A program made the position numbers and the translations under genes. The notes beneath the pieces were generated by a model. The model was given only the letters and a program-made list of their open reading frames with translations. It ran no database searches and had not been told where the DNA came from. Shown here in pieces: positions 2,868 through 62,459 of a stretch of DNA of 64,000 bases. The DNA is from Monocercomonoides exilis PA203 (lineage: Eukaryota > Protista > Preaxostyla): positions 1,612,001-1,676,000 of the forward strand of contig LSRY02000008.1 of NCBI GenBank assembly GCA_001643675.2, in the 5' to 3' direction. How positions within the stretch are numbered: the stretch's first letter is position 1; each line of letters begins with the position of its first letter.

Positions 2868-4433
2868 TCATACCAAAAATACATCTACGTACCCATCATT
2901 CCACTTACCCCAGCTGTCGTGCCAACCAAAGTAAATGGCGTCTTCTCTCGTGCTAAAGAAGAAGAAAAGAAAAAGAAGAAGAAAAGAAGAAGAAAAAGAA
3001 GAAATCTTTCCTGTTCCAATGACCGAAATCTTCTTTGATCCAATCACAATTATTGCTGCCTCACTTATGTGTTCCCCTTCCATCAGCGTAACAGACAGGC
3101 TCACCTGGATCTTGCTCTTATCAACTGCAACACCAATGGTTCTGCATGCACTTGGCTCATCCAATCCACACAACTCTTCTTCACCACCACCACTCACTGC
3201 CACAAATCGGTTGAGAATCCCTCTCTTCAGCCAATCATTTTTTGATGTTTCGTCATATGCCCAACTCCCCGAATTCGATGCATTGTATGCGTAGCACACT
3301 CTCTTGTCATCTGTGTTTGTGGTGTAACATTCATAGAATGGATTTCCTGAATTCAAATAGAGATTAAAATGATCTCCATATACCATATCGTGACCATAAG
3401 GAGGATTGGCCGAACATTTGCATTCACATTTATGGAAAAAAAGAAAATAACAATAGAAGCCATCATCTGGTGCCGTTGACAATTTCGGTTCCAATCTCAT
3501 TCCTCCTCCATACCCCATTGCCGAGCACGAAATGAACTGAATATTCCTCATTTTGAATTGAAAAGGAACGCCGTAGCAGTAAATGCCTCCTCCATGATAA
3601 GTTGAAACTGAGCATGAAGTGAAACAGCAGTCAAACACACACGCACTTTCCCCTTCTCCACTTTCTGTTCCAATGCACCCTGTTCCTGAAACATCAAAAG
3701 TATGAAGCAAAAGCCCTCCTCCTTGACTGTTTGCTTTACAATTCTGGAATTCACATCCACTGATCCGAACACACGTTGAAATCGTAAAAGCATACATTCC
3801 TCCCCCCAATTGATTTTGCGCGGTGCATGAATTGAAAGAATTGTTCATAACCTCAACGGATTTTATATTATAGCACATTATTCCCCCTCCCCGGCTGTAT
3901 GCAATGCATCCATTGAACACGCAATGCGAAACAGACACCGATGCCGACGACTGGCTGTACATGCAGATTGCCCCTCCGCTTGATATTCCATCAGCATACG
4001 AGTCGCTTTCTCCTGTTGTCCTCGATCCATCCCACTCGCACCAAGTGAATGAATTTGCTCCATTTTCTGTTTCGTTTTGTCTCCCTGGCTGTTTCTTATT
4101 GTCTTCAGTTCCAGCGCATTCAACATTTCTTGTCCTGCAGCATCCGATGAATGATGTGTTTGAGGCAGACAATGAAGCTAAAGGATTGTTGAAGGAATGA
4201 ACAATCCAGCCATCATATGCATCACAAACAGACGAAAATGAGCAGCTGCACATCATATATGAGGTTTGGGTTGATGTAGTTGCTGGGGACGGACAATCTG
4301 AAGATGCTGTTAAAATGTTAAAAAAAATGAGTTTGGAGAGAGAAGCAAAGGGCATCGAGGGAGTTGAGAGGAATGGACAAAAAGAATAGAGGTGTGATTC
4401 ATTCACAATAATTCTTCCTTTCTCTTCACCCAT
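2868..4433 (-). CDS. Cassette A: Cys-rich GGG-repeat parallel beta-helix-like surface protein core (possibly silent)
   Basis: 521-aa ORF with family motifs NTSF.GCCR, FTWCEW, GGAIC, RISGCEFQNCKA, ESACVFDC, YFLFFH, GNPFYECYTTNTD, KKISVIG. The tail is Ser/Phe low complexity. Confidence 0.8.
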   Translation of the reverse strand: MGEEKGRIIVNESHLYSFCPFLSTPSMPFASLSKLIFFNILTASSDCPSPATTSTQTSYMMCSCSFSSVCDAYDGWIVHSFNNPLASLSASNTSFIGCCRTRNVECAGTEDNKKQPGRQNETENGANSFTWCEWDGSRTTGESDSYADGISSGGAICMYSQSSASVSVSHCVFNGCIAYSRGGGIMCYNIKSVEVMNNSFNSCTAQNQLGGGMYAFTISTCVRISGCEFQNCKANSQGGGLLLHTFDVSGTGCIGTESGEGESACVFDCCFTSCSVSTYHGGGIYCYGVPFQFKMRNIQFISCSAMGYGGGMRLEPKLSTAPDDGFYCYFLFFHKCECKCSANPPYGHDMVYGDHFNLYLNSGNPFYECYTTNTDDKRVCYAYNASNSGSWAYDETSKNDWLKRGILNRFVAVSGGGEEELCGLDEPSACRTIGVAVDKSKIQVSLSVTLMEGEHISEAAIIVIGSKKISVIGTGKISSFSSSFLLLFLFFFFSTREDAIYFGWHDSWGKWNDGYVDVFLV

Positions 4434-4870
4434 TTACTATGTGCTTCTCTTGTATCTATCCGCAATTTTGTAATAAACTCGGAAAAGTTCAAATTCCATT
4501 TTCCTGCCTCTTTTGCACCTTCTGAAAAGTTTTTTGTAAAATAATAGAAATGCATCTTTCCCTTCAGCGCCTCAAAATGGAAATGCATTCCAACATTCTT
4601 CCTCATCTGTCTTTCCACAAAATCGCTTTTTTGGCTGTTGTCATCTTTTGCCTTCTTTCCAGCATCTCTCATTCCATATGTTTTCATCGGCTGTAAATCT
4701 TCTCGCTTAAATGTCCTAATTTCAGAATAAAATAATAAAATAATATTTATTATTTATTAAAAATAAATTCATGCCTTTTATAACAATCAATTTTCATGGC
4801 TTCTTTCTTTCTTTATTCTTCACATATTTTCCCTTTCAATCAACTCATCCATCTGCCTCATCTACGCTGC

Positions 4871-6421
4871 TCATCTGATTGCAGAATGAATTGATTCATT
4901 TCTGCTTCCAGCGGAATAACTCCAACAGACAAAAATCTTAAAAACAGGCAATAACAGTGATGAAAAAGATAAAGAAGAGAATGATGAAATACAAAAATTT
5001 GTTTCTGTTCCAATCGAACATGTTTCTCTTCTTTTCCCAATGACTGAAATCTTCTTTTCTCCAATCTCAATTGTTTCTGTCTCGCTTGTGTGATTCCCTT
5101 CCATCAGCGTAACAGACAGGCTCACTTGAATCACGCTCCGAATGACTGCAACACCAATGGTTCTGCATGCATATGATTCATTCACCCCACACAGATCTTC
5201 TTCACCACCTCCGCTTACAGCCACAAACCGATTGAGAATCCCTCTCTTCAGCCATTCCTTCTTTTCCGTGTGCTGAAATGTCCAACTTGTTGAACTCGAT
5301 GCAATATATCCATAGCACACTCTCTGATCATCTGTGTTTGTTGTGTAACATTCATGGAACGGATTCCCAGAATCCAAATATAAATTGTAATTATCTAAGT
5401 ATATCATATCGTGACCATGTGGAGGATCACCCAAGCATTTGCATTCATGGAAGAAGAGGAAATAGCAATAAAGCCCATTAGCTGGCACAGTTTTTTTTTC
5501 TGGCTCCAAATGAAATCCACCTCCCCTGGTCGATGCATTACACGAAATAAACCTGACGCTTCTAATCTTGAATTGATTGGGAACATTTCTGCAATACATG
5601 CCTCCACCCCATGTGCTTGTAATTGAACATGAAGTGAAACTGCAGTCAAACACACACGCGCTCTCTCCTCCTCCACTTTCTGTTCCAATGCATCCTTGTA
5701 CTGAAACCTGAAAATCATTAAGATAAAGTCCTCCTCCATAGCCATTTGCTTTACAATCCTGGAATTCACATCCGCTGATACGAACACATGTTGTAATTGC
5801 CACAACGCACATCCCTCCTCCAGCATTTCTTTGAGCTGTGCATGAGTTGAACGAATTGTTTTCAATCTCAACAGATTTAATATTTGCACACAATATTCCA
5901 CCTCCATCCCAATAAGCAAAACAGTTGTTGAATGAACAATGTGAAACTGATGCAGTGGCAGATGACTGATTGTACATACAAATTGCCCCTCCATTTGAGA
6001 CCCCATCGGTGTGAGTATTATTTGTTCCAGTCGTATTTGATCCATTCCACTCGCACCAAATAAATGAATTTTCTCCATTTTCTGTTTCATTCTGTCTCCC
6101 TGGAGTCAGCTTGTTGTCTGCAGTTCCTTCACATACAACATTTCTTGCCCGACAACACCCAACGAATGAGGTGTTTGACGCAGACAATGAAGCTAAAGGA
6201 TTGTTGAGGGAATGAACAATCCCTCCATCATACCCATTGCAAACTGATGAAAATGTGCAGCTGCTCATCAGACATGTAGCTTGGGTTGACATTGTGGTTG
6301 AAGGTGAACATGCCTCATTTGCTGTTGATATATTGAAAAATGTCAGGTGAGATAGGGATATAAGGGTAATGAAGATTGATGAGAGGAATGGGGTTGAAGA
6401 TTGGATAAGAGATTCTCTCAC
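4871..6421 (-). CDS. Cassette B, same family
   Basis: 516-aa ORF. The 5' part mirrors cassette E (outer P1 arm), the middle is near-identical to G, and the 3' module is identical in protein to H. Non-ATG start and decayed tail. Confidence 0.8.
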   Translation of the reverse strand: MRESLIQSSTPFLSSIFITLISLSHLTFFNISTANEACSPSTTMSTQATCLMSSCTFSSVCNGYDGGIVHSLNNPLASLSASNTSFVGCCRARNVVCEGTADNKLTPGRQNETENGENSFIWCEWNGSNTTGTNNTHTDGVSNGGAICMYNQSSATASVSHCSFNNCFAYWDGGGILCANIKSVEIENNSFNSCTAQRNAGGGMCVVAITTCVRISGCEFQDCKANGYGGGLYLNDFQVSVQGCIGTESGGGESACVFDCSFTSCSITSTWGGGMYCRNVPNQFKIRSVRFISCNASTRGGGFHLEPEKKTVPANGLYCYFLFFHECKCLGDPPHGHDMIYLDNYNLYLDSGNPFHECYTTNTDDQRVCYGYIASSSTSWTFQHTEKKEWLKRGILNRFVAVSGGGEEDLCGVNESYACRTIGVAVIRSVIQVSLSVTLMEGNHTSETETIEIGEKKISVIGKRRETCSIGTETNFCISSFSSLSFSSLLLPVFKIFVCWSYSAGSRNESIHSAIR

Positions 6422-9400
6422 AGAAATTTCTTTCCTTCAACGTTTCCTTCTCTTCCCCTTCATTCAGAAAAATTTTGCAAAATATCCCAATAAGTTTCAG
6501 TATCTTTTTTTGTCTTCGCTCGCCTCTTCTGATAGGAATGTTATCGCCTAAATCTTTTTTTTTTCCTTCTGTTTCCGTTTTCTTCCTTCTTTCCATATTC
6601 CATTCGCATTCATCCCTTTTGGATATTCATGCAAAACTCCCTGTCATCATAAAAAAAAAAAAGAAAAAAAATATTTTAAATGTAATACAAAATATCACAA
6701 ACCAGTACCATTTTCCTTTCGCAATCTGCTTCCTTTTCTTCATCTTCATATCCTTCTTGACTTCCTGTCACATTTCTTCTTCAGCCATTTCCTCAATTTT
6801 CCGATTACTCTTTTCTGTCGCTTCCCCTCCTTCTTTTTCAAATCGCTGCACAAATCTTCAAAGCCCTCCTCTTCCATTCATTTCATTGATTTCCTCCAGC
6901 TCATTCTTCGATATTCTCAAAAAAATTGTGTTGCCTGCTTTCTCAAAAGCATCAAATGTGCTCTTTTCCCCATGTTCATTCATTGCCTGAAAATGTCCTT
7001 CCATAAATCTTAATCTCTCAAAATAAATAAAAATAAATATGTGAAAAATTGGAGAAAAAAAATTAATACAAAACAAACTCTAAAAATATGTTTATTGCCA
7101 ATCTTCACACACTTTCTTCTTCTTCTTCGAGTGCCTCTCAAAATATTGTTCTTTTCTGCCAACAAAACTCGCCTTTTTTGCTTCTGCTGCCTATCTCAAC
7201 ATCAATGAAATCAATTCTGTTCTGCTTCCAAAAACTTGCTTTATTTCCAATTCTTGGCACTGATTCCACTCGAATAATACACAAATAATAAAAATGCTTC
7301 AATATAATTTTAATGAAGATGAGGATGATGATGACAGCGATGATGGCAATGACAGAGATGAAGATGATAAAGGTGGTGAATGCGATGTTATTTTCAAGTT
7401 TGAATACTATACATCTTCTGTCAGAAGATATTCTCAGCATCACTGCCTCGTTCTCTGCTCTTGTGAATAACGTTTCAATGATAGAAGGCTGAAGACAAAG
7501 GTCAAACGATAAAAGTCCATTTTGCCTGTAATTTGCCTCCAGCTGCCGTATTACGCAAAACTGTCCGTTTTTCTCGTTTTTTCGCCTCTCAACCCAAGCA
7601 ATGAAAAGCAGTTCCATCGCTCCCCTTGGTCCGTAAAATCAATGTCTTGCCCTTCTTCTCCAAAGAAAGGCTCCTTGTTCTGTCCAAACTGATTTCAATC
7701 TCCTGTTTCAGTTATTTGCCCCAATCTTTCCAACAAACTTAAAAATGAAAATGTCTTCTTCCTCTTTTTAAAAAACGCTCCCTTTTCATTGAATTTGGTT
7801 ATTCTTCCTTTTTGCCTTGGATATCTTCCAACCCCGTTGATTTCTGCTCCATTAAATTTCATTTTTCATCACATTTCTATCGATTGTGCATGTTGAGTTA
7901 ATAACAAGTCACATAAACATTTATGATAAAATACATTCTGGCTCTAATATATTTGTAACATAACATTTGTCTCGCTTCCTCGCTGTTCTGCTCTGCATGG
8001 AATAAATTGTTCATTTTAAATAAGTTGTCTGAATCACGACTTTGGAGAGGTTACGGATGATAACATCTTCACAATCAACAGAACAATAAAAATTACATAC
8101 ATTGAAAATTCATCATTTCCATCGAAAATATTGTTGCTCCACAGCCATTCATCAATCAATATGAACAATTTCATCTTTCATCAAGCAAACATTCTTTTGT
8201 AATACCCCACATTTTCACTGGAAATATATCATTTAGTCAACCTGTCTTTGTTTAAACCTCGGAATCTGACCCCGTTGACAGTTTCTGAGCATTTGACATT
8301 GCTTGATCATGTTCCATAACGAATAAGAGCCACAAAAGAAAAGAAAGTCCTACTCGATGTGCCGTGGCTGAATGGGCATATGAAGACAATGCGATAACAA
8401 TAGGATGGATTTGTGGTATGGGGTGAAGGAGTTGAGTTCTTGGAGGAGGCAGGGTTTAGAGAGGGAATGGAACGATTAAAGGATGGTTTTTTTGGGGGGA
8501 GAAAGAGGTGTTTTTGGGAGGTTTAAGAGGCATAATGGATGTGTAGGAGATGGATAGGGATAGACTTTTGTGGGGTAGTTTTTTCGATTTTTGTGAGTTG
8601 GAAGGTGTGGAAGTTGCGTTTATTATTTGAGAAAAGGAATTTGCTGTTGAGGAGGTGGGATAAGAGGGAACAGAGGGGAAGAAGATGAGTGGGGCTAATG
8701 GAATATATTTATTGGAGGAGAGGATTAGAGATGGAAAGGAAATGGAGAGATATGTGGAGGAGGTGTTTTTTTTTTTCAAATGCAGAGAGAGAGGGGGTTC
8801 ATATGGGGCAGGGCAAGAGGGAGAGTATTTGCGAACTGATGTTTGATAAGAAAGAGAAGTGGGGTTGAAGAAAAAAAAGTGAAGAAAAATTTTCTTCATA
8901 TTTTTATATAATTTATTTTGCGAACCGTTTGGCCGCGCCTCTCATTTGCAGGGCAAGTGTTGGAGGCGGAGGTGGAGAAAGACAGGAAGAAGGAACATCA
9001 GCGCTGGCACTTTGCATTGGAGGTGTGGAGACAGAGGAAGATGAAGGGCTGACAATGAGAGAGTATTTTGCAATGGAAAGAGACAGAAAAAGGATGGAGG
9101 TATTTATTTATTTATTTATTTTTTTGGTTGGAAGAAGGGCATGGGAGATGAGGAGACAGGGATTGTGATATTTGGTGGAGGGGCGTTGATATTTTAGAGG
9201 AAATGGAGAGAAGAAGAAGGCAATACAGCGGAAAGGGATGGGAAGGGGTTATTCTGATGGAATTATCTTCTTTTCCAGTTTTTTACAGAACGGAGTTTGT
9301 GAAGTTATTCAAGTGGAAATAAGACCAAGGATTGGAAGTAAATGATTTTTAGGAGTAGAAAGGAGCGAAGAAGGGGCAGATGGGCTTTGTTCGGTGAAAG

Positions 9401-10204: not shown

Positions 10205-10540
10205 TGTTATTTTTCCACCTCCACCTCCATCGAATTAAGAATTTTGCTTGGATATATTCTGTGAATGAATGAATGAATATGGAACATGGAAAGATTGCCA
10301 TTTGAAGGGTATTTTTGGAATGATGGCTGAGATGAATGAATGAAAGGGGTGAATAGAGGAGTGAGCAGGTGCAAAAATTGAAAGGGAGAAAAGAGGAGGG
10401 ATTTGAAGATTTGAACAGCGATTTGAAAAGAAGGAGTCGAAGCGATCGAATAAAGATCGGAAAACCGATGAAGCAATAAAAGGAGACATTTGGCTCAAGA
10501 TTGAGAAGAGGAAAAGAAATTTTATGAGGATGATGAGAAA

Positions 10541-11392
10541 AGAAGGGGAAGAAGAAGGGGAAGAAGAGGGGGAAGAAGAAGGGGAAGAAGAGGGGGAAGA
10601 AGAAGGGAAAAAGAAGTGGAAGAAGAAGGGGAAGAAGAAGGGGAAGAAGAAGGGGAAGAAGAGGGGAAGAAGAAGGGGAAGAAGAGGGGGAAAAAGAAGG
10701 GGAAGAAGAAGGGGAAGAAGAGGGGAAGAAGAAGGGGAAGAAGAGGGGGAAGAAGAAGGGGAAGAAGAAGGGGAAGAAGAAGGGGAAGAAGAAGGGGAAA
10801 AAGAAGTGGAAGAAGAAGGAAGAAGAAGGGGAAGAAGAGGGGGAAAAAGAAGGGGAAGAAGAAGGGGAAGAAGAAGGGGAAGAAGAAGGGGAAGAAGAGG
10901 GGGAAGAAGAAGGGGAAGAAGAGGGGGAAGAAGAAGGGGAAGAAGAAGGGGAAAAAGAAGTGGAAGAAGAAGGGGAAGAAGAGGGGAAAAAGAAGGGGAA
11001 GAAGAAGGGGAAGAAGAAGGGGAAGAAGAGGGGGAAGAAGAAGGGGAAGAAGAGGGGGAAGAAGAAGGGGAAGAAGAGGGGGAAGAAGAAGGGGAAGAAG
11101 AAGGGGAAGAAGAAGGGGAAGAAGAGGGGGAAGAAGAAGGGGAAGAAGAGGGGGAAGAAGAAGGGGAAGAAGAGGGGGAAGAAGAAGGGGAAAAGAAGTG
11201 GAAGAAGAAGGGGAAGAAGAAGGGGAAGAAGAAGGGAAAAAGAAGGGGAAGAAGAAGGGGAAAAAGAAGGGGAAAAAGAAGGGGAAGAAGAAGGGGAAGA
11301 AGAAGGGGAAGAAGAGGGGGAAGAAGAGGGGGAAGAAGAAGGGGAAGAAGAAGGGGAAGAAGAAGGGAAGAAGAAGGGAAGAAGAAGGGAAG
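10541..11392 (+). repeat. Polypurine 12-bp minisatellite (GAAGAAGAAGGG)n, ~850 bp
   Basis: Almost pure A/G tract. It produces the EEEG, KKKG and RRRG ORFs in three frames. Confidence 0.97.
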
Positions 11393-11943
11393 ATTGCGAA
11401 AAGTGAATGGTGCTGGTTTTCCGTATGTTTTATATTTAGTTTTAAATATTTTATTTCGAATTAATTTTCATATTTTCTTTCATATGTATATATTATGTGT
11501 ATTTCTTGATATTTAATTTAATATTTCTTCAGTTTTTTATTTCTTTCATATTTTTCTCCCATTTTTTTTTAAAAGATGATAAGATATTTGCTGAAATTTC
11601 AATGGAAATAGATGCGAATGGAATTTTGAAAGAAGGCAAAAGAAGAAAACAGTCGAAAAGAGAGAGATTTTGTTGAATGCGGATAGCGAAGTGCATTGGA
11701 ATGCTGTTTCTGATTGGTGATATTGAAGGGGGAAAATGCTTTTCTATTTTTTAATAAGATTCATTTAAAAAGCAGGATAAGAGAAAGAAGAAATTGGAGC
11801 AAACTTACAGGGATATTTTTTCGAGATTGCGCTCAGAGGCAAGGCAAGCTGATTGGAGGGAAATATCAGAAAATGGCAAATAAGTGAATATGAAGGAAGA
11901 ATTACAGTGAGAGAATCAAGCCCTATTCCTTTCAACTCCCTCA

Positions 11944-13397
11944 ATGCTCCTTGTATCCCTCTCTCACCTGACATTTTTCAATATTTCAACAGCAACATCG
12001 GAATGCTCGCCTTCAACAACTACGTCAACCCAAACCTCGTGTTTTATGAGCAGCTGCTCGTTCTCATCAGTTTGCGACGCATATGATGGCGGAATTGTTC
12101 CTTCTCTGAACAGCCCCTTGGCTTCCTTATCTGTTTCGAACACATCATTCATTGGGTGTTGTCGAACAAAAATGTTGTTTGCGAAGGAACATCAGACAGA
12201 AAGTTGACTCCAGGGAGACAAAACGCAACATTCAATGGAGCAAATTCATTCACTTGGTGCGAATGGAATGGATCAAAGACGACTGGAAACAAAGATGATT
12301 ACGCAGATGAAGCTTCTAACGGTGGAGCAATTCGAATGTTTAACCTCAATTCAGGAGAACTAACAGTTTCTCATTGTGCATTCAACGACTGCTATGCATA
12401 TTATGGCGGAGGCGGAATCATGTGCCGTTCAATCAAGTCAGTTGATATAACAAACAATTTATTCAACGCTTGCAATGCTCAAAACAATGCTGGAGGGGGA
12501 TTGTATGTTGTATTAATTTCATCATGTGTTCGGATCAGCGGATGTGAATTCCAGGATTGTAAAGCAAATGGCGCTGGAGGAGGACTTTATTTAGATAATT
12601 TTTATGTTTCAGGATCAGGATGCATTGGAGCTGAAAATGAAGGTGGGGAGGGTGCATGTGTGTTTGACTGCAGTTTCACTTCATGCTCGCTGTCTGGAAA
12701 TAGTGGCGGAGGGATGTGTTGTCAAAATATCCCTGCGACTCAGTTCAAAATGAGGAGCATTCAGTTTATTTCATGTTCAGCAATGGGATATGGAGGAGGA
12801 TTATATTTTCATCCAAATAAGCAAACAGATCAAAATAATACATTCTATTGTTATTTTTTGTTCTTCCATGAATGCAAGTGCAGAACTACATCCACTCCAT
12901 ATGGGCATGATGTTGAATATGTTGATACTTACGATGTCTATTTGAACTCAGGAAATCCATTTTGCGAATGCTACACCACAAACACGAATGAACAGAGAAT
13001 GTGTTATGCATACAACTACTCGAATGCAAACACCTGGTATTTTCAGTACACAGAAAAGAAGGAATGGCTGAAGGACAAGACGATCTATGTGTCAGCGAAT
13101 GGAAATGATACATCTCCACTTTGTGGGTCAAATGAATCAAATCCATGTCTGACAGTGAAGAAGGCGTTTGAGATGTGTGAGGTGCAGATTAGCTTGGCAA
13201 TCACGCTGATGGAAGGAAATCACACAAGCGAGACAACAACTATTAAGATTGGAGAAAAGAAGATTTCGGTCATTGGGACGGGCAAAGATAAAAGTTCGAT
13301 TGGAACAGGAGCATTTTCATCATCGTTATTTTTTTTCTCTTCCTCTTCTTCGCTTTCTTCGTCATACTCGTCAGTCTTTAAGATTTTGGTTGCATGA
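11944..13397 (+). pseudogene. Cassette C, left-arm copy, split by a 1-bp A-run difference (possible sequencing error)
   Basis: ORFs 11944-12207 plus 12156-13397 equal the intact mirror ORF 21528-22982. The run is A5 at ~12168 versus A6 in the mirror. Confidence 0.8.
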
Positions 13398-14127
13398 ATT
13401 GTTCGAGTGCGAGCGAAGCTGAGATTGGAAATAAGCAGCAATTTTTGGAGCAGAAGAGAAGCAATGCTATTGGCTGTGATACTGGCAGCTGAGACATAGC
13501 AGATGGGTTTTGCAAGCAGAAAGGAGCAATATTTTGAAAGACAAAAGATGATGATGAAGAAGAATATGTAAATGAAGTGTGATTATTTTTGAAGCTCATG
13601 AAATAAAAATGTTTCTTTTTCAATTTTTTCTTTTCAATTTTTCAAATATTTTCTTTTAATGATATTGGAATGTTTGCACAAATTCCCAATGCCAATGCAC
13701 TCGCAAGGAATATGGAAAGATGGCGTTTTGACATTTTTGCTCAGCAAAAGGTTCAACGGTTTTTGTATAGATAAAGGAAAATGCGGGCTCAACAATGGAA
13801 ACGAATAGAAGAGGAGTCCTTTTATTGCTTTGTGAGGCATATAGTGCAGTCATGCCAAAAGAAAAGAAAAAAAGAAAAACTGATGAAATGACAGAAGAAG
13901 GAGTCTGACGAGAGATTGAGAAGAAGAAATATTTTTTGGAACTTCGATTGAAAGAGAAAGTTTTATGAAAATCTGATGAAAGCGAAGAAAGAAGGGAAAG
14001 AGAAGATGGATTATATGATTTTGAGGGATGCTTGAAGAAAAATAGAAAGAAAGAAGAAGTGGAAGAAATATTTATATGAGAGAGTTGTGGAACTCAACTG
14101 TTGAGTTGAAGAGGGCAGGGCTGGTGG

Positions 14128-15858
14128 TTGGGGGTGAGTGGAAGGAAAGGGAGCGTGGTTGTGATGAGGGGGTGTGTTGTGGAGATGGGGAAGGACAATG
14201 AGGGAGGGGCATTTGATCTGAGTGGGAGCATTGGAGTGTTGAGGAACATCACATTGAAAGGGTGGAGAAGAGGGGGTGAGATATACTCGGGAAGGCTGTT
14301 TGGAGGGAAGGGATATGGAGGGGAGAAGGGTGGAAGTGAAGAAAAAGGAGGAGAAGGAGGAGAAAGAGATAGAGGAAAAGGAAGAGAAGGAGATGGATAT
14401 GGAGAAGGCATTGAAGGGAGTATTTCGGTGAGTGAATCACGCTTCTCTTCTTTTTGTGTCTCATCAGCCCCATTCCTTTCATCCCCTTCAATACCCCTTG
14501 TATCCCTCTCTCGCCTGACATTTTTCAACATCTCGACAGCAAATGAGGCATGCTTGCCTTCAACCACTTCCTCATCCCAAACCACTTGTTTTATGAGCAG
14601 CTGCTCCTTTTCATCAGTTTGCGACATATATGATGGCGGAATTGTTCCTTCCCTCAACAACCCCTATGCCTCTCTGACTGCCTCAAACACCTCATTTGTT
14701 GGGTGTTGCAGGACAAGAAATGTTGTTTGCGAAGGAACAAAAACTAATAAGCTGGCTCCAGGAAGACAAAATGAAACATTCAATGGAGCAAATTCATTTA
14801 TTTGGTGTGAATGGAATGGATCGAGGGCAACAGGAGAAAGTGACTCGTATACTGATGGAATATCGAGTGGAGGAGCCATCTGCATGTACAGTCAATCATC
14901 TGCCTCTGTGTCTGTTTCTCATTGTGTGTTTAATGGATGTATTGCACATTATGCTGGAGGAGGAATTAATTGCTTCAATATTTCATCAGTTGAGATTGTG
15001 AACAACACCTTTGATTCTTGTAACGCTCAAAATCGTTATGGTGGTGGAGTATTTGTTTATACGATTTCGTCGTGTGTTCGTATCAGCGGATGTGAATTTC
15101 AGAATTGCAAAACAGTTAATTATGGAGGAGGACTTTATCTTGATAATTTTAATGTTTCAGGAACAGGATGCATTCCAATAGAAAAGGGGGAGAGTGCGTG
15201 TGTTTGACTGTACTTTCACTCTATGTTCAGTCACAAACAATTATGGTGGAGGTATGTATTGCGTCACTATTCCTAATCCATTTAAAATGAGGAGCATTCA
15301 GTTTATTTCGTGCTCAGCATCTGCACATGGTGGAGGTTTGAGATTGCACCCAAACAGACCAACAGCACCTGATGATGGAATCTATTGTTATTTCCTTTTT
15401 TCCACGAGTGCAAATGTTCTAACAACCCCTCTTACGGCCATGATGTAATGTATCATGATTACTACAGTGTCTTTTTATCTTCTAATAATCCATTCTATGA
15501 ATGTTACACCACAAACACAGATGACAAGAGAGTGTGCTACGGATATAATTATGCAAATGCAAGTGCTTGGACATATCAGCACACGGAAAAGAAGGATTGG
15601 CTGAAGGACAAGACAATTTATGTGTCAGTGAGCGGGAATGACCTGAATAAGCTGTGTGGAGCAAATGAAACATTTCCTTGTCTGACAGTGAAGAAAGCGT
15701 TTGAGATGAGTAAGATACAAATTAGTTTGACAATCACACTGATGGACGGGAATCATCAAAGCAAACTTATTGCGATTAAGGCTAGTGATGCCAAAAATAA
15801 GTGGATGAAAAGCGTATTCGCTTTTATTGTAATGGCGATCATTCCAATTCTTACATAA
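14128..15858 (+). pseudogene. Cassette D, left-arm copy, split by simple-repeat indels (possible sequencing errors)
   Basis: ORFs 14128-15207, 15194-15448 and 15385-15858 together match the mirror ORF 19052-20791, apart from a 6-bp in-frame loss at ~15185. The frameshifts are -2 in a GT repeat (~15200) and -1 in a T run (~15398). Confidence 0.8.
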
Positions 15859-17139: not shown

Positions 17140-17755
17140 CAGTCTAAATCGGATATAATCACATCGGTTTTTGCACAACTTTTTGTGATTATATCCGATT
17201 GTGATAATATGCGATGCTGCTTAACACAGAAAAAAATAAAAATTAATTACAGATATCGCATAAAATACCCGACATCGCACAAAATACCGGACAAGATCGA
17301 TTTCACAACAACTGCAAGAGGAATAATTCTGACAATTTTCCTCAAAATACATCTCTTCAATACAAACTCAATTGATAAATGTGACTTTCTAAACAGCTTC
17401 ATTTGTGCTCAGAAAAATTAAATGTCGAAAACTCGGAAAAACTCAAAATCCAATTTCTCCGAGATTTTTTAAATAATTTTCTGTTAGCACAAATGGAGCT
17501 ATTTTGAAAGTCTCGTTCATCAAATGAGTTTGTATTGATGAGATGTATTTTGAGGAAAATTGTCAGAATTATTCCTCTTGCAGTTGTTGTGAAATCGATC
17601 TTGTCCGGTATTTTGTGCGATGTCGGGTATTTTATGCGATATCTGTAATTAATTTTTATTTTTTTCTGTGTTAAGCAGCATCGCATATTATCACAATCGG
17701 ATATAATCACAAAAAGTTGTGCAAAAACCGATGTGATTATATCCGATTTAGACTG
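17140..17755. mobile_element. pogo/Tigger-like non-autonomous TIR element forming the centre of P1 (616 bp)
   Basis: TA|CAGTCTAAATCGGATATAATCACATCGG terminus (TA-CAGT ends are typical of pogo/Tc1-type elements) and a perfect 17-bp subterminal inverted repeat 17147-17163/17184-17200. End symmetry is not independent evidence, because the element lies on the palindrome axis. Confidence 0.55.
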
Positions 17756-44457: not shown

Positions 44458-46374
44458 TCATTGCATTCCATGTTGCAGTATATAATCTTCTTCTCTGATT
44501 GTATTTGCACAAATAACTCTGATCTCCTCAATCAAACTCAAATCTTTCTCATTCATATTCACCACCATGCTCTCTTCTGATGCTGTGGCTGTCAGATACG
44601 GTGCAGATGACAACAATGACGACAATGAAGAAGAAGAAGAAGAAGAGAGATCCGTCTCAGAAAACAATGGTTTTGAGACATTCATATTTTTGATCTCCAC
44701 ATCAACCATCGACAGCTGCGACAGCGGCGTCACAAACACTGACGACGACATCACATAGCCTCCTGTTTTACTCGTGGTGATCACAACATCCTCCAATGAG
44801 AGTGACCCACCTCCATCAGACACCACAACCACACTCGGCGAAGGATTTATATTTGAGTTACAATCAACCTTCATGTGCAATAAACCAAGGTGACCTGTCG
44901 TCACACTGAACAGCGTTCCTACAGATGAAAGGGCTCCTGTTCCAATCGAACATGTTTCTCTTCTTTTCCCAATGACTGAAATCTTCTTTTCTCCAATCTC
45001 AATTGTTTCTGTCTCGCTTGTGTGATTCCCTTCCATCAGCGTAACAGACAGGCTCACTTGAATCACGCTCCGAATGACTGCAACACCAATGGTTCTGCAT
45101 GCATATGATTCATTCACCCCACACAGATCTTCTTCACCACCTCCGCTTACAGCCACAAACCGATTGAGAATCCCTCTCTTCAGCCAATCCTTCTTTTCCG
45201 TGTGCTGATATGACCAAGCACTTGCACTTGCATAATTGTATGCATAGCACACTCTCTGGTCATCTGTGTTTGTGGTGTAGCATTCATAGAACGGATTGCC
45301 TGAATTCAAAAAACATTATAATAATCAACATAATACGCATCGTGACCATAAGGAGGATTGGCCGAACATTTGCATTCATGGAAGAAGAGGAAATAGCAAT
45401 AAATTGTTTCATTTGGCGCTGTTTGTTTGTTTGGCTCCAACCTCAAACCTCCACCCTCGTGATACTGCTGAACACGAAATAAACTGAATGTTCCTCATTT
45501 TGAATTGGACTGGGACATTATATAAACTAATGCCCCCACCATATGAACTGGTAACTGAGCATGATGTGAAACTGCAGTCAAACACACACGCACTCTCTCC
45601 TCCCTCATTTTCTGTTCCAATGCACCCTGTTCCTGAAACATCAAAAGAATGAAGCAAAAGCCCTCCTCCTTGATTGTTTGCTTTACAATTCTGGAATTCA
45701 CATCCGCTGATCCGAGCACATGATGAAATGGTATTCACATACAATCCTCCTCCGGCATTGTTTTGAACAGAGCATGAATTAAAAAAATTATTTTCGATTT
45801 GAATAGATTTAATTGTATGGCACATGATTCCGCCTCCATCCCAATGTGCAAAACAATTGTTAAATAAACAATGTGAAACAAAAAGTTCTCCATTTCTCAG
45901 ATTGAACATCCAAATTGCTCCTCCGTTAGAAGCACCATCTTCCCACGAATCATTCGTTCCTGTTGTTTTCGATCCACTCCACTCACACCATGTGAATGAA
46001 TTTGCTCCATTATCTGTTGTATTTTGTCTCCCTGGAGTCAACTTGACATCTGCATTTCCTTCACATACAACGTTTCTTGTACGACAACATCCAACAAACG
46101 AGGTGTTCGAGACAGTCAGAAAGGCCAAGGGATTGTTGAGGGAAGAGACAATCCCTCCATCATACGCATCGCAGAGTGATGAGAATGAGCAGCTATTCAT
46201 AAAACATGTGGTTTGGGAAAAGAAATTGGCCAATGACGAGCATGCCCCATTTGCTGTTGAGATGTCGAAAAAAGTCAGATGGGAGAGGGATACAAAAGGG
46301 ATGGAAGGTGAAGAGAAAAAATTGGCAAATAGAGGAGAAATGCGATTTTCTCTAAGAAAATTCTTCCTATACAT
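44458..46374 (-). pseudogene. Cassette H, right-arm copy, with two compensating homopolymer indels
   Basis: ORFs 45409-46374 and 44458-45309; +1 at ~45455 and -1 at ~45310 relative to the left copy. Confidence 0.8.
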
Positions 46375-49884: not shown

Positions 49885-51357
49885 GTGAATCAAGCTCCAT
49901 TTCTTTCAACTCCCTCAATGCTCCTTGTTTCCTTCTCACAACTCACATTTTTCAATATTTCAACAGCAAATGATGCATGTTCGCCTTCAACCACTACGTC
50001 AATCCAAACCTCATGTTTTATTAACAGTTGCTCATTTTCGTCTGTTTGCGACATATATGATGGAGGTATTGTTCCTTCACTCAACAACCCCTTGGTCTTT
50101 TTGACAGCCTCAAACACCTCGTTTGTTGGGTGTTGCAGGACAAGGAATGTGAAATGTGAAGGAACTGCAGAGGTTCTATTGAAACCAGACAGACAGAATG
50201 AAACATTCAATGGAGCAAATTCATTCACTTGGTGCGAGTGGAGTGAATCGAAGGCAACAGGAAACGGCAACACATATGCCGATGGCACTTCGAACGGTGG
50301 TGCTATTTTCATGTTTGGTCAATCGTCTGCCACTGTTTCAGTTTCGCATTGTGCATTCAATGAATGTGTTGCGTATTACGCAGGCGGAGGGATTTCATGC
50401 TATAGCATTAAATCAGTTGAGATTGTGAATAACACATTTAATGCTTGTGCTTCTGAAACATGGATTGGAGGAGGGGTGTTCGTTTTTACTATTTCAACAT
50501 GTGTTCGGATCAGCGGATGTGAATTCCAGAATTGCAAAGCATATAGCCATGGAGGAGGACTTTTTCTTGAAAATTTTAATGTTTCGGGGCAAGAATGCAT
50601 TGGAACAGAAAGTGGAGAAGGGGAGAGTGCGTGCGTGTTTGAATGCTGTTTCACTTCATGCTCAATAACTGGAACATGGGGAGGAGGCATGTATTGCAGA
50701 AATGTTCCCAATCAATTCAAGATTAGAAGCGTCAGGTTTATTTCGTGTAACGCATCGACCAGGGGAGGCGGATTTCATTTGGAACCAATAAAGCAAACTG
50801 TACCAGCTGATGGGCTTTATTGCTATTTCCTCTTCTTCCATGAATGCAAATGCTTGGGTGATCCACCACATGGTCACGATATGATATATCTGGATTATTA
50901 CAATTTATATTTGGATTCTGGGAATCCGTTCCATGAATGTTACACAACAAACACAGATGATCAGAGAGTGTGCTACGGATATATTGCATCGAGTTCGACA
51001 AGTTGGACATTTCAGCACACAGAAAAGTGGGATTGGCTGAAGGATTGGACGAAGGTTCTGTATGTGGGTGCTAATGGAAGCGACTCGAGTGGGCTGTGTG
51101 GGATGGGTGAGCCAGCACCTTGCAAGACGGTGGGACACGCAGTGGAGACGGGCTTGGAAGAGCTGAGCTCATCAGTCACGCTGCTGGAAGGGAATCATCA
51201 AAGTGAGGCAACAACAATTAATATTGGATCAAAAAAGATTTCTGTCATTGGGACGGGCAAAAATAAAAATTCGATTGGAACAAAAACGAATTTTTATATT
51301 TCATCCTTCTCATCTTCATCTGCTCCTTCTTTCTTTTTCCTGCAATTTTTTCTCTAA
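49885..51357 (+). CDS. Cassette G, right-arm copy
   Basis: 490-aa protein identical to 34705-36177. Confidence 0.8.
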   Translation: MNQAPFLSTPSMLLVSFSQLTFFNISTANDACSPSTTTSIQTSCFINSCSFSSVCDIYDGGIVPSLNNPLVFLTASNTSFVGCCRTRNVKCEGTAEVLLKPDRQNETFNGANSFTWCEWSESKATGNGNTYADGTSNGGAIFMFGQSSATVSVSHCAFNECVAYYAGGGISCYSIKSVEIVNNTFNACASETWIGGGVFVFTISTCVRISGCEFQNCKAYSHGGGLFLENFNVSGQECIGTESGEGESACVFECCFTSCSITGTWGGGMYCRNVPNQFKIRSVRFISCNASTRGGGFHLEPIKQTVPADGLYCYFLFFHECKCLGDPPHGHDMIYLDYYNLYLDSGNPFHECYTTNTDDQRVCYGYIASSSTSWTFQHTEKWDWLKDWTKVLYVGANGSDSSGLCGMGEPAPCKTVGHAVETGLEELSSSVTLLEGNHQSEATTINIGSKKISVIGTGKNKNSIGTKTNFYISSFSSSSAPSFFFLQFFL

Positions 51358-52090: not shown

Positions 52091-53854
52091 ATGATAGCAG
52101 GGACTTTTGCATGTATATTTAAAAGCGATGACAGAAAATGGATTTTTGAAAACAAGCAGAAGATTTCAATAGAAGAAAAAGAGATATGGGGAAAGCAGAC
52201 GATGAAGAAGGGGCAGAAAAGATGGAAAAAGGGATGCGACCATGTTGAGGTATTTTGTGAAATTTCACCAAGAAGCATTGAGAAGAGAAGGAGGCAAAGA
52301 AAGAAGTGCTTCAGTGAGCGAACTGCATTTCTCTTTTTTCTGTATTTTTCTCTTCCAACATATTTGTTTTTCAATATTTCAACAGCAAATGAGGCATGTT
52401 CGCCTTCAACCACTACGTCAGCCCAAACCACTTGTTTTATGAGCAGTTGCTCATTTTCATCGATTTGTGATGCGTATGATGGAGGAATTGTTCCTTCCCT
52501 CAATAACCCCTTGGCCTCCTTGTCTGCCTCAAACACATCATTTGTTGGGTGTTGCAGGACAAGAAATGTTGTTTGCGAAGGAACTAAAACTAATAAGCTG
52601 GCTCCAGGAAGACAAAATGAAACATTCAATGGAGCAAATACATTTATTTGGTGCGAATGGGATGGGTCAAAAACAGCGGGAAAAGGCGATTCATGGGATG
52701 ATGGTATATCGAGCGGGGGAGCGATATGCATGTTCAATTTGGGAGAAGGAATGTTGTCTATTTTGTTTTGCAAGTTCAACAACTGCTATTCTGATGCGCA
52801 TGGCGGAGGTGTATTTTGCCATGCAATCAAGACAATTGTGTGTGAGAACAGCACATTCAGCAGCTGCACAGCACAAGCAAATACAGGTGGCGGAATTCAT
52901 GCTTATTCGATTTTATCATGTGCTCGGATCAGCGAATGTGAATTCCAGAATTGTAAAGCAAATAATAATGGAGGAGGACTTTATCTTAATGATTTTCAGG
53001 TTTCAGGAACAGGATGCATTGAAGCAGAAAATGGAGGAGGGGAGAGTGCGTGTGTGTTTGACTGCGGTTTCACTTCATGCTCCCTTTCAAGTTCAAGTGG
53101 CGGAGGCATGTATTGTCGAACTGTTCCTGTCACATTTAAAATGAGGAGCATTCAATTTATTTCATGTAATGCTTCATCGTATGGTGGAGGGCTAAGCTTT
53201 GATCCGAATAAACCAACACCACCAGGTGATGGGATTTATTGCTTTTTCCTTTTCTTTCATGAATGCAAGTGCAGGATTACATCCACTCCATATGGTCATG
53301 ATGTGATGTATTATGATTACTTTAATCTTTATTTGGAATCAGGAAATCCGTTCCATGAATGTTACACCACAAATACAGATGACAAGAGAGTATGCTACGG
53401 ATACAATGCATCGAATTCGGGGAGTTGGGCATATGATCAATCAATGAAAAAGGATTGGCTGAAAGATAAAACGTTATATGTTTCGGTGAATGGAAATGAT
53501 AATTTTGAGTTGTGTGGGGCAAATGAAACATTTCCTTGTCTGACAGTGAAGAAGGCATTTGAAATGAGTGAGGTGCAGATAAACTTGGCAATCACGCTGC
53601 TGGATGGAAATCATCAAAGTGAGGCAACAACAATTGAGATTGGATCAAAGAAGATTTCAGTCATTGGGAGAGGCAAAGATAAGAGTTCGATTGGAACAGG
53701 AGCATTTTCATCAACAAGATCGCTGTTCAGTGTATCAACAGGTCATCTGGGAATGAGAAAGCTGAAGATTGATTGTAACTCAAATGCAAATCCTTCTTCA
53801 CCGAGTGTGGTTGTAGTGTCTTATAGAAGTGGAACACTTTCACTTGAATTTTAA
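52091..53854 (+). CDS. Cassette F' (right-arm copy, intact; 3' end differs from F)
   Basis: 587-aa ORF matching F until ~53607, then RGKDKSSIGTGAFSSTRSLFSVSTGHL as in E. Confidence 0.8.
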   Translation: MIAGTFACIFKSDDRKWIFENKQKISIEEKEIWGKQTMKKGQKRWKKGCDHVEVFCEISPRSIEKRRRQRKKCFSERTAFLFFLYFSLPTYLFFNISTANEACSPSTTTSAQTTCFMSSCSFSSICDAYDGGIVPSLNNPLASLSASNTSFVGCCRTRNVVCEGTKTNKLAPGRQNETFNGANTFIWCEWDGSKTAGKGDSWDDGISSGGAICMFNLGEGMLSILFCKFNNCYSDAHGGGVFCHAIKTIVCENSTFSSCTAQANTGGGIHAYSILSCARISECEFQNCKANNNGGGLYLNDFQVSGTGCIEAENGGGESACVFDCGFTSCSLSSSSGGGMYCRTVPVTFKMRSIQFISCNASSYGGGLSFDPNKPTPPGDGIYCFFLFFHECKCRITSTPYGHDVMYYDYFNLYLESGNPFHECYTTNTDDKRVCYGYNASNSGSWAYDQSMKKDWLKDKTLYVSVNGNDNFELCGANETFPCLTVKKAFEMSEVQINLAITLLDGNHQSEATTIEIGSKKISVIGRGKDKSSIGTGAFSSTRSLFSVSTGHLGMRKLKIDCNSNANPSSPSVVVVSYRSGTLSLEF

Positions 53855-58500: not shown

Positions 58501-60002
58501 ATTTGAAGTTATGTCTTTGTGAGAACTTTCTGATGCACAATGATGGCTGCAAAAACAAAGAAATGAAAGCGATCTGTGCTTGATGTGCTGAGGAAGTTGC
58601 CTCAAGCAGAGACGAAACAGAAGAAGTACAGAAAGAAGAAGAAGAAGAAGAAGAAGAAGAAGGTCTTCTGGCTCTGAGCCACTTGAGCTTGTGAGATGGA
58701 GTGGCATTGCTTGGGTGTTTGATGTTTGATGAAATTTTTGAGTTTGCATGAACTCAAAAAAAAAAAATAATAAATAAATAGATAAATAAATAAATTGGAA
58801 AGTGGACAAGAAATTGCATTTGAAGGAGATTGGGGAGAGGAGGAAATACAATGAGCTGCACCACAATCTGACGCATCTGGAGTGCCAGCTGGTGTGGGAG
58901 TTTTTGATGAGCAGAATGTTGGAGGAGAGAGAATGAGAAAGTGTTGTTGTGAGAGACCGAAGATTTGGGAGAGATGTGCCAAAAGAATAGGAAGAGGCGT
59001 TGAGATGAGTGGATTTGACGAGAAAGGGGAGGAAGAAGGGGAAGAGAAAGGGGAAGAGTTGGAAGAGGGAGTTTTGTTTTGATGGGCAAATGCATTTGAA
59101 ATTCTTTTTGTGGGAAAGAATAAAAAAAGAAAATAGAAAAAAGAAAAAAGAAAAAAGAAAAAAGAAAGCATGAACGGCGAACATTATAGAATATCCGATT
59201 GGAAATGAATGGAACGGAGAAATATAGCCACAGAGCAGGTTTTCAATTCTGGCATATGCTTCGATTTGAGGCAAGGTTAAGGCAAGAGAATGAGGGACTT
59301 TGAACTTGTTGGACTTATTAATCAACACTTATGATTTTTGATGGCAAATGTTTTTCCGAACAATTTCGATAAGACGAATTTTTGACAAAAGAAGAATTAG
59401 AAGAATATTGAATTGGAGCATCGAAAAGGATGCTTCAATCTTTCAGGTTTATTATCAATGTGTGCAACTCCTTCCTTTTTTTAAATCAAATCTGATTTTT
59501 TTCAAATGACAATTAATTTATTGTTCGTGTTTAAAAATTTGATGTTATGTCCAACGCCAGTTCATAAACATGGAACGTGAAAAGATGATTTTTGAGCACT
59601 TTTTGAAAATACAGTTGAAACGAATTGAGAGCGAATGGAGGAATTAATTAAAGAAAATATATGAAATGAATGGAAGAGGAAAGACTTGAAGATTAATACA
59701 AAATTTTGAAAAGGGGGAAGGGAAGAAGCAAAGGAGAGAGCGGAAAATTGATGATTTGATAAAAGAAAGATTCTGGCAAGAATTAGAGAAGACGAAGAAG
59801 AATGATGAAGACGAAGAAGATATTAACAAAAAATAGAATAAAAGAGAATATTAAATGAAGGCGAAGAAAGAAGGGAAAGAGAAGATGGATTATATGATTT
59901 TTTGAGGGATGCTTGAAGAAAAATAGAAAGAAAGAAGAAGTGGAAGAAATATTTATATGAGAGAGTTGTGGAACTCATCAGTTGAGATGAAGAGGACAGG
60001 GC

Positions 60003-62459
60003 TTGTGGTTGGGGGAGTGTGGAAGGAAGGGGAGTGTGGTTGTGGTGAGGGGGTGTGCTGTGGGGATGGGGAAGGATGTTGAGGCAGGGGCATTTGATGT
60101 GAGTGGGAGCATTGGGGTGTTGAGGAACATCACATTGAAAGGGTGGAGAAGAGGGGGAGAGATCTATTCAGGCAGGCTGTTTGGAGGGAAGGGATATGGA
60201 GGGGAGAAGGGTGGAGGTGAAGAAAAAGCGAGTGAAGGAGAAGGAGGAGAAAGAGGAAGAGGAAGAGAAGGAGATGGAGATGGAGAAGGCATTGAAGGGA
60301 GTATTTCGGTGAGTGAATCACATTTCTCTTCTTTTTGTGTCTCGTCAGCCCCATTCCTTTCGTCCCCTTCAATACCCCTAATATCCCTCTCCAAACTCAC
60401 TTTTTTCAATATTTCAACAGCAAATGATGCATGTTCACCTTCAACAACTACGTCAACCCAAGCCTCATGTTTGATGAGCAGTTGTTCATTCTCATCTGTT
60501 AATGATGCATATGATGGAGGAATTGTTCCTTCTCTGAACAACCCCTATGCCTCTCTGACTGCCTCAAACACCTCATTTGTTGGGTGTTGCAGGACAAGAA
60601 ATGTTGTTTGCGAAGGAACTAAAACTAATAAGCTGGCTCCAGGAAGACAAAATGAAACATTCAATGGAGCTAATACATTCACTTGGTGCGAATGGAATGG
60701 ATCGAAGACAACAGGAGAAGCTGACTCGTATGCTGATGGAATATCTAGCGGAGGGGCCATCTGCATGTACAGTCAATCATCTGCCTCTGTGTCTGTTTCT
60801 CATTGCTCTTTCAACAACTGTTATGCTTATTATGCAGGAGGCGGTATTTATTGTTACAATATCAAATCTGTTGAGATTGTGAACAACACCTTTGATTCTT
60901 GTACTGCACAAAGTTATCGTGGTGGCGGGATGTTCATTCATACTATAAAATTGTGTGTTCGGATCAGCGGATGTGAATACCAGAATTGCAATGGAAGAGA
61001 ATGTGGAGGAGGACTTTATCTTGATTATTTTAATGTTTCAGGAACTGATTGCATTGGAACAGAAAATGGAGGAGGGGAGAGTGCGTGTGTGTTTGACTGC
61101 AGTTTCACTTCATGCTCATTGACAAACAATGGAGGTGGAGGCATGTGTTGTGCTACTGTTCCTGCGACACAATTCAAAATGAGGAGCATTCAGTTTATTT
61201 CATGTTCGGCATTTTCATATGGAGGAGGATTTTATTTAAATCCAAATCAACCAACAACGCCAAATGATAAAATATATTGTTATTTTTTATTTTTTCATGA
61301 ATGCAAATGTTCGGCCAATCCTCCTTATGGGCATGATGTGATGTATTATGATCGCTATGAACTTTTTAATTCATCTGGAAATCCATTTCATGAATGTTAC
61401 ACAACGAATACAGACAGCAGGAGGGTATGTTATGGATATAATTACACGGGAAGTAGCTGGCTATTTCAACACACAGAAAAGAAGGATTGGCTGAAAGACA
61501 AGACGTTATATGTTTCTGTGAATGGAAATGATAATTTTGAGTTGTGTGGGGCAAATGAATCAAATCCGTGTTTGACAGTGAAGAAGGCGTTTGAGATGTG
61601 TGAGGTGCAGATAAGCTTGTCAGTCACGCTGATGGAAGGGAATCACACAAGCGAGGCAACAACAGTTGAGATTGGAGAAAAGAAGATTTCAGTCATTGGG
61701 AAAGGGAGGACGGAGAGTTCGATTGGAACAGGAGCACTTTCATCTGTAGGAACGCTGTTCAGTGTGACGACAGGTCACCTTGGTTTATTGCACATGAAGG
61801 TTGATTGTAACTCAAATATAAATCCTTCGCCGAGTGTGGTTGTGGTGTCTGATGGAGGTGGGTCACTCTCATTGGAGGATGTTGTGATCACCACAAGTAT
61901 TTCTTCAGGAAACTATGTGATGTCTTCGTCAGTGTTTGTGGTGCCGCTGTCGCAGCTGTCGATGGTTGGTGTGGAGATCATAAATATGAATGTCTCAAAG
62001 CCATTGTTCTCTGAGCCGGATCCATCTTCTCCTTCTCCTTCTTCTTCTTCTTCATTGCCGTCATCTGCACTGTATCTGACAGCCACAGCATCAGGAGAGA
62101 GCGTGCTGGCGAATGTGAAGGTGACGAATGTGAAGTTGACTGAAGGAGATGGGGTGGTTGTGGCAAAGAGTGTGAAGGCTGGAGAGACATTTGGGATGAT
62201 GAGCACGAGAACAGAAGGGGGGCAGAGTGGTTGTATGTTTGGGAAGGGCGATTCTGAGATGAATTTTTGGTCACATGCGAATTTGGAGGGAGGAATAAAA
62301 AATCATAGGTGCGTTGTGAATTTGTTTCTGTTTTGCTGCAACTCGTGCAACCCACATAAAATAAGCATCATAACTGCTGCAAAACTCGAAATCTCCTGTT
62401 TTATCAAGGAGCAGAAAATCGGGTTTATTTGTGAAAAGGAAAGGAAGCAAGGTGAGTAA
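60003..62459 (+). CDS. Cassette I, the longest family member in the window
   Basis: 818-aa ORF with a D-like N-terminus, the core, and an H-like extension to ...EGDGVVVAKSVKAGETF. The last ~90 aa look non-family or decayed. Confidence 0.82.
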   Translation: MWLGECGRKGSVVVVRGCAVGMGKDVEAGAFDVSGSIGVLRNITLKGWRRGGEIYSGRLFGGKGYGGEKGGGEEKASEGEGGERGRGREGDGDGEGIEGSISVSESHFSSFCVSSAPFLSSPSIPLISLSKLTFFNISTANDACSPSTTTSTQASCLMSSCSFSSVNDAYDGGIVPSLNNPYASLTASNTSFVGCCRTRNVVCEGTKTNKLAPGRQNETFNGANTFTWCEWNGSKTTGEADSYADGISSGGAICMYSQSSASVSVSHCSFNNCYAYYAGGGIYCYNIKSVEIVNNTFDSCTAQSYRGGGMFIHTIKLCVRISGCEYQNCNGRECGGGLYLDYFNVSGTDCIGTENGGGESACVFDCSFTSCSLTNNGGGGMCCATVPATQFKMRSIQFISCSAFSYGGGFYLNPNQPTTPNDKIYCYFLFFHECKCSANPPYGHDVMYYDRYELFNSSGNPFHECYTTNTDSRRVCYGYNYTGSSWLFQHTEKKDWLKDKTLYVSVNGNDNFELCGANESNPCLTVKKAFEMCEVQISLSVTLMEGNHTSEATTVEIGEKKISVIGKGRTESSIGTGALSSVGTLFSVTTGHLGLLHMKVDCNSNINPSPSVVVVSDGGGSLSLEDVVITTSISSGNYVMSSSVFVVPLSQLSMVGVEIINMNVSKPLFSEPDPSSPSPSSSSSLPSSALYLTATASGESVLANVKVTNVKLTEGDGVVVAKSVKAGETFGMMSTRTEGGQSGCMFGKGDSEMNFWSHANLEGGIKNHRCVVNLFLFCCNSCNPHKISIITAAKLEISCFIKEQKIGFICEKERKQGE

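Follow-up and report, generated by a model that had tools for sequence, protein, structure and literature searches.

Results

A palindromic array of receptor-derived cassettes

We analysed a stretch of 64,000 nucleotides (nt) of the oxymonad Monocercomonoides exilis PA203 (contig LSRY02000008.1, positions 1,612,001 to 1,676,000), which we refer to as the window. This AT-rich eukaryotic DNA carries 14 copies of nine types of gene cassette, named A to I, arranged along a chain of palindromes. Each cassette corresponds to the same slice of the ectodomain of a family of large kinase-like receptors, and the nine types share near-identical blocks with partners that change along the gene. The cassette cores comprise 437-441 codons, with pairwise DNA identities of 69-80% in a codon alignment and protein identities of 62-75%. 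The frame was open in at least one copy of 9/9 types, core indels were whole codons, and the ratio of nonsynonymous to synonymous substitution (dN/dS) was 0.32.

Cassette A (2868-4433, minus strand) is open and spans receptor positions of about -39 to +449; B lies at 4871-6436 (minus), E at 28085-29668 (plus) and I, the longest remnant (-153 to +638), at 59991-62459 (plus). The other types occur in two copies of opposite orientation, and one-base indels disrupt one mirror copy each of C, D, F and H. Copy 2 of C (21528-23015, minus) is open and copy 1 (11914-13397, plus) has a one-base deletion relative to it. Copy 2 of D (19052-20809, minus) is open and keeps about 130 extra codons of receptor N-terminal sequence; copy 1 (14110-15858, plus) lacks 8+1 bases relative to it and its frame is broken. 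F copy 2 (52300-53854, plus) is open, and F copy 1 (32208-33729, minus) shows two one-base indels relative to it and a different tail. H copy 1 (39707-41599, plus) is open and its slice reaches about +600, with two one-base indels within the frame of copy 2 (44458-46395, minus). Both copies of G (34705-36177, minus; 49885-51357, plus) are open.

Comparisons beyond the window were made at the protein level. Among the matches listed for cassette H, 115 of 120 were named M. exilis proteins and the other five were the window's own, four of which are recorded on a contig with dozens more short members. One annotated protein, P0001 (968 amino acids, aa), consists of two cassette cores in tandem.

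The cassettes represent a constant slice of the receptor ectodomain

Alignment with the full-length receptors showed that a cassette is a constant slice of about 470 codons from the N-terminal ectodomain, with identities of up to 74% to long receptors over the full core. Window cassettes matched receptor positions of about -40 to +450 only (D, H and I being longer, up to -153 and +638) in 101 long proteins, bar two weak repeat matches. In the short members of the family the same limits recurred: 95 of 101 ended at +418 to +540, none of 101 carried a membrane segment and 3 of 101 had a signal-like start. Frames were open only within the slice and the 3′ ends decayed at differing points; the first in-frame ATG inside the domain was the annotated start in about half of the short members, at +10 to +30 in 46 of 101. 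No trace of the receptors' signal-bearing exon was present in the window. Signal peptide, membrane segment and kinase-like tail are all absent; the cassettes are fragments and not receptors.

Neither four cassette frames nor the core matched any Pfam family, and Rfam gave no match. The slice, modelled on cassette I, is predicted to form a right-handed parallel beta-helix, the fold comparison aligning 224 residues (73-366) to 8ja4_A with a Z score of 18.2 and a root mean square deviation of 3.8; many other beta-helices were also retrieved.

Spliced RNA contigs cover A or its twin. One of them runs from the tail of B into A and lacks a 59-nt GC-AG intron upstream of A's frame (4716-4774, minus strand), and a 205-nt GT-AG intron was spliced out downstream of the frame (2579-2783, minus). 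Over B, an RNA contig of run X5 (5661-5998) showed three differences, of which those at 5948 and 5952 are absent from the lists of three DNA runs. One difference gives the residue of protein P0007, and no stored protein matches the whole stretch; this contig would represent an unassembled copy or a newer variant.

Cassettes share blocks that include synonymous sites

The original prediction, made from the letters of this DNA, held that the cassettes are segmental mosaics of each other and named nine shared blocks, all of which are present in the sequence. Cassette pairs have blocks of 50-350 nt in common at 93-100% identity, synonymous sites included. The longest join B to G (5263-5614, minus strand; partner 35037-35388; 336 of 354 nt) and B to H (5005-5285, minus; partner 40840-41120; 281 nt, 98.9%). 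Cassette A shares 75 nt with E (3956-4031, minus; partner 28475-28550; 97%), 92 nt with H (3668-3758, minus; partner 40352-40442; 98%) and 114 nt with F (3254-3368, minus; partner 53321-53435; 93%). On the plus strand, E shares 136 nt with I (28850-28985; partner 61071-61206; 95%) and 82 nt with H (29015-29096; partner 40616-40697; 98%), D, F and I have 111-112 nt in common (52523-52634; partners 20131-20242 and 60558-60669; 98-99%), and H and I share 183 nt (41106-41288; partner 61717-61899; 98.9%). Tracts of about 75-350 nt were bounded on both sides inside the gene for B-G, B-H, A-E, A-H, A-F, E-I, E-H, D-H, F with D/I, and H-I.

Single cassettes change partner along their length. B has a start identical to that of E, a middle of its own that it has in common with P0007, a G-like part at codons 243-364 and an H-identical part at codons 360-446, and E reads, in order, as B, A, I, H and F. 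Best partners often lay outside the window; examples are the pairing of A with P0042 and that of I with P0027 over about 76 residues. Across the family, 97 of 112 short members had a run of at least 20 variable residues in common with another short member (null 2.3).

Eight of the nine noted blocks fall within the core and gave ten pair tests; the ninth is the H-I block of 183 nt. Nucleotide identity within the core blocks was 94-100%, compared to 71-79% outside them in the same pair, and codons for the same amino acid were identical in 89-100% of cases inside compared to 64-75% outside, so that the shared blocks do carry identical synonymous sites. Blocks differed from the remainder of the same pair in 9 of 10 tests (Fisher p<0.02), the exception being the short A-F block (p=0.07), and from other pairs at the same columns in 7 of 10 (p<0.05), with A-H, A-F and D-I above the threshold. 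At core codons 181-240 (e.g. 60940-61120), synonymous divergence was low in all cassette pairs, at 15-21% of same-residue codons compared to about 50% at codons 106-180; this is a homogenised block.

Near-identical copies differed only in clusters, which indicates short templated tracts. B and its mirror E had 9 differing sites within 6039-6749, all in 51 nt (6251-6301), and the six differences between B and its twin P0022 (473 residues) fell in a span of 30 residues, with B equal to H at five of them. Mismatches in the tracts were clustered (35 close pairs, null 17.7), and both alleles were found in other cassettes for 64 of 81 mismatches, overlapping tracts being counted separately (expected 29.5%). 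Several partner switches fell at core codons 96-101 and 358-370, some of them one event seen twice; these positions coincide with the 5′ edge of the receptors' variable region and the end of the predicted beta-helix.

A single tree does not account for the cassettes

A permutation test in the style of GENECONV gave fragments that were globally significant (p<=0.05): 36 when run on 764 polymorphic sites, 12 when run on 354 third positions and one (B-G) when run on 124 silent codons. The pairwise homoplasy index (PHI) was significant (p<0.001) on all sites, on third positions, and with B and E left out. When the alignment was divided into five segments with borders picked after the fragments had been seen, each segment rejected the five other trees (25/25, p<0.05 in the approximately unbiased test). 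In 300 simulations without recombination and with position-specific rates, the longest identical run did not exceed 59 nt, compared to 231 observed, and at most one pair had a 75-nt interval of at least 96% identity, compared to 11 of 36 observed. These results reject a single tree, as had been predicted, with significant breakpoints and synonymous sites common to the partners, and we regard a recombinational origin of the mosaics as very probable.

Palindrome arms end inside cassettes

The array is a chain of three palindromes and a fourth, with its centre near 1150, that extends beyond the window. P1 (6039-28482, spacer 17410-17485) has arms that stop at about codon 100 of B and E; those of P2 (29248-32628, spacer 30901-30960) stop at about codon 360 of E and F copy 1; and those of P3 (32393-53669, spacer 42801-43257), which in the assembly differ by 6 substitutions in 10.4 kb, stop at about codon 440 of the two copies of F. 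All three pairs of arms thus break off at equivalent codons within cassettes, which makes B-E and E-F arm ends, and the first and last parts of E belong to the arms of P1 and P2. The D-I block is partly an older duplication that takes in upstream DNA, at 92-94%. The claim of frequent short-tract gene conversion is supported in a refined form, in which these blocks are set apart, the best partners often lie beyond the window, and non-reciprocity and direction are putative.

At the fourth centre, 1-177 pairs with 1756-1932 and 540-1065 with 1232-1757, which suggests, from the sequence at this centre, that mirror copies of A and B lie to the left of the window; P0022 may be the mirror of B. Both arms of P1 also contain a purine-rich 12-nt tandem array with extreme GC skew (10540-11393, 72 copies; 23534-24002, 39 copies).

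The slice is scrambled in full-length receptors

The cassettes have at least 148 long homologs of 1433-4090 aa on many contigs, and by our own count about 79 of 120 listed carry PF07714/PF00069. The receptors proper are single-pass, kinase-like proteins of 2,200-3,900 aa with the slice in the N-terminal ectodomain. The analysis covered 94 of the at least 148 long members (at least 2200 aa, core present); a membrane segment lay near the C-terminus in 88 of 94, a signal-like start was present in 50 of 69, and the core occupied about residues 240-675. A first look at 32 mid-length proteins had indicated little exchange with long genes and gave way to the present analysis when receptors longer than 2185 aa were added.

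All four receptors scanned (4/4) matched the kinase C-lobe. In P0157, P0159, P0160 and P0239 the match was confined to profile positions of about 157-257, the C-terminal half of the profile, so the receptors may be pseudokinases, and these four are likely degenerate kinases. By their kinase label the receptors would belong to the tyrosine-kinase-like group, which is reported to comprise 320 of 332 kinases and to be the organism's largest family (PMC6759080, PMC8767320); the assembly paper places these kinases in overlap with unclassified repeats (PMC8767320).

Sister receptors were defined on a region further downstream, giving 35 non-overlapping sister pairs and 45 non-sister pairs; 60 overlapping pairs were also examined. 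Median identity of sister pairs was 86% upstream of the slice, 79% at -25 to 100, 60% at 100 to 425, 81% at 450 to 600 and 83% far downstream, and that of non-sister pairs in the matching regions was 30, 58, 54, 65 and 49%. Over these five regions the coupling ran 0.80, 0.50, 0.15, 0.47 and 0.67. The slice is scrambled in the full-length receptors.

Tracts that match a cassette at places where the sister differs were carried by 51 of 79 receptors (null 15, from a column-shuffling null that ignores local conservation). With a criterion of a 30-residue interval at least 93% identical where the sister is at most 70%, 360 of 8848 receptor-cassette pairs were detected (null 33, maximum 62), compared to 129 of 7268 receptor-receptor pairs (null 15); per pair, changed receptor tracts matched cassettes 2.3 times as often as other receptors. 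Window cassettes were involved in 22 of the 360 pairs, with 8 of 9 types represented (null 2.2). Receptor P0157 was 92-100% identical to differing cassettes in 12 of 13 intervals, and the full-length receptor P0158 carries the B-G block at the protein level.

Discussion

On balance, we think it probable that the cassettes are truncated copies of a receptor slice, turned into mosaics by what is likely recombination, and that they are a likely donor pool for the receptors. Ectopic homologous recombination likely shuffles the cassettes, which likely donate to receptors in turn, in a presumed direction of transfer. M. exilis is reported to be without non-homologous end joining and to possess homologous recombination repair (PMC6759080). 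Breaks would be repaired from a paralogue 70-80% identical, copying 50-350 nt by gene conversion, and a fold-back duplication, completed when the template switches from one cassette to another, would give rise to palindromes with chimeric cassettes at the arm ends. Tracts would pass from cassette to receptor over evolutionary time, slowly and in a germline sense, not via one switching site, and would vary a surface domain that is probably glycan-facing. More tentatively, and with a little less than even confidence, we propose that M. exilis, a gut commensal devoid of mitochondria, maintains more than 100 leaderless, anchorless cassettes in palindromic arrays. Kept in the germline by selection, this archive would use segmental gene conversion to rewrite the beta-helix that faces the ligand in about 150 receptor kinases, generating a repertoire for sensing and not for immune escape.

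Several results weigh against the main reading. None of the nine window cassettes (0/9) had a run of at least 20 variable residues in common with any of the 94 receptors (median best 16, null 9), and only 20 of 94 receptors had a long run with any short member. At matched identity, runs between cassettes were 3-4 times commoner (22.8% vs 6.0%; 6.0% vs 1.5%), and 33 of 94 receptors share tracts with each other. The receptor comparisons are at the protein level; much the same matches would be expected if cassettes had received the tracts, and cassettes that have been homogenised are closer to every family member. The receptor window at 100 to 425 was the lowest of three regions in 22 of 30 pairs, not in all. 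The model of the slice has a predicted local distance difference test score of 69.8, and Foldseek returned no match at E<=0.001. Unlike a silent archive, A or its twin yields spliced transcripts, as seen in one RNA run. As regards recombination itself, PHI was non-significant (p=0.77) when confined to the third positions of codons whose amino acid does not vary, with 90 informative sites, and the nine switch points were sharp and shared 2-9 nt only, with no enrichment for long homology; we therefore claim no special junction signal.

The alternative that fares best, although we judge it unlikely, is that the array is a bystander: inverted duplication multiplied one truncated fragment of a receptor, nearby alike copies convert each other as a sink or by-product, and the scrambling of tips, under selection, takes place between the receptors. 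The dominance of exchange between cassettes, the want of a long run between any window cassette and a receptor, and the exchange among receptors all agree with it, and a common truncated ancestor would account for the common slice. Against it stand the position of the scrambling, which peaks inside the cassette span, is intermediate on its flanks and least outside, the 2.3-fold excess per pair of cassette matches in changed receptor tracts, and frames that are open only within the slice. Even if the array were only a bystander, the scrambled 325-residue receptor window would mark a likely binding domain.

It is improbable that the short genes are working proteins themselves, such as lectins or soluble decoys, and that conversion diversifies them as in any multigene family. 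Their open frames, the dN/dS of 0.32, the spliced transcripts over A and the more than 100 annotated short members would suit such a role; signal peptide and anchor are lacking, however, no trace of a signal-bearing exon is left in the window, about half of the annotated starts are the first ATG in frame inside the domain, and the 3′ ends decay at differing points.

A very small chance remains with chimeras produced by assembling or polishing many similar repeats. The differences between the inner palindrome arms are mostly homopolymer indels, and the one-base indels that break single mirror copies of C, D, F and H look like residual errors. In addition, contig depth in run X4, which is uncalibrated, was 138-154 over an arm of P1 (9225-10390), the lowest in the part covered, compared to 241-449 over A and B (2293-6534). 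At a third to half of the A/B depth, this would mean that assembly duplicated the inner palindrome or that the assembly lacks further copies of A and B; the inner palindromes may thus be assembly duplications. M. exilis has a 454 and a Nanopore version of its genome, according to the assembly report (PMC8767320). The proteins of C, D, E, G and the twin of B are letter-for-letter identical in NCBI and EukProt; the two sources differ for F and at other loci, so they likely represent two assemblies. DNA contigs of three runs from one sample, which may be the data behind the assembly and cannot phase segments, reached each of the 30 bins over A and B with few differing letters, and the cores of both were free of listed fixed disagreements. 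Finally, the tracts span 93-100% identity, keep the frame and belong to a family-wide pattern.

Protein-level constraint or convergence alone is practically excluded: the silent-site PHI result, the single block found on silent codons only and the covariation of synonymous and amino-acid divergence along the gene (rho 0.45) would fit it, but codon identity within blocks, the 231-nt identical run and the change of partners along the gene speak against it, and for B-G, B-H, A-E, E-H and E-I it is refuted by synonymous identity above both controls.

The predicted fold resembles that of right-handed parallel beta-helix proteins, among them an alginate epimerase/lyase (8ja4), phage tailspikes and the adhesin PfbA, with Z scores of 14-18 for 50 listed entries; identity to these proteins is 5-15%, and the fold shows no function. 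The palindromes recall yeast fold-back inverted duplications stabilised by repeat-mediated recombination, which likewise have short spacers and a far junction in a repeat (PMC10622511). In the present array, several palindromes overlap one another, and cassettes play the part of the repeats. In their accessible parts, the kinase papers on M. exilis are silent on the ectodomain, on truncated cassette arrays, on palindromes and on conversion (PMC6759080, PMC8767320). Nor did the literature on oxymonad gene conversion and on Monocercomonoides antigenic variation and kinases, subscription papers being mostly outside reach, yield a description of these arrays or of conversion; PMC10463195 makes no mention of M. 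exilis, and the passages of PMC10703272 are not relevant here. The array would offer a concrete structure for the largest, unexplained gene family of M. exilis and for part of its unclassified repeats.

Archives of cassettes, used via segmental gene conversion, occur in pathogens in which a single exposed antigen varies. In msp2 pseudogenes, pilS/pilE, tprK and mosaic VSG, partial donor copies and segmental gene conversion give rise to mosaic surface domains. Here the likely targets are receptors of a signalling type, which have a kinase-like tail and belong to a commensal of the gut. The vls locus of Borrelia, with vlsE and its silent cassettes, comes closest: it too has arrays of truncated in-frame copies of the central variable region of a surface protein, inverted repeats, segmental exchange and a variable window between conserved flanks, and the same source names Anaplasma msp2, Neisseria pilS/pilE, Treponema tprK and trypanosome mosaic VSG (PMC11499132). 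In contrast to vls, there are about 150 dispersed full-length genes, none a near copy of the window cassettes, instead of one expression site; the cassettes are 62-75% identical in protein, compared to about 90% in vls, and lie kilobases apart in both orientations, not contiguously; GC skew is modest (0.10-0.21); at least one cassette is transcribed, exchange among cassettes dominates, and the direction is presumed. With no single expression site, at least one transcribed cassette and an unproven direction, the array is not a member of the vls/msp2 archives, despite its like anatomy. Conversion between paralogous genes is commonplace; the same cannot be said of arrays whose cassettes match a scrambled window in about 150 oxymonad receptor kinases. 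With the anatomy of the antigen archives, and with many signalling-type receptors of a commensal oxymonad as its apparent target, the array would amount to a receptor-diversifying system.

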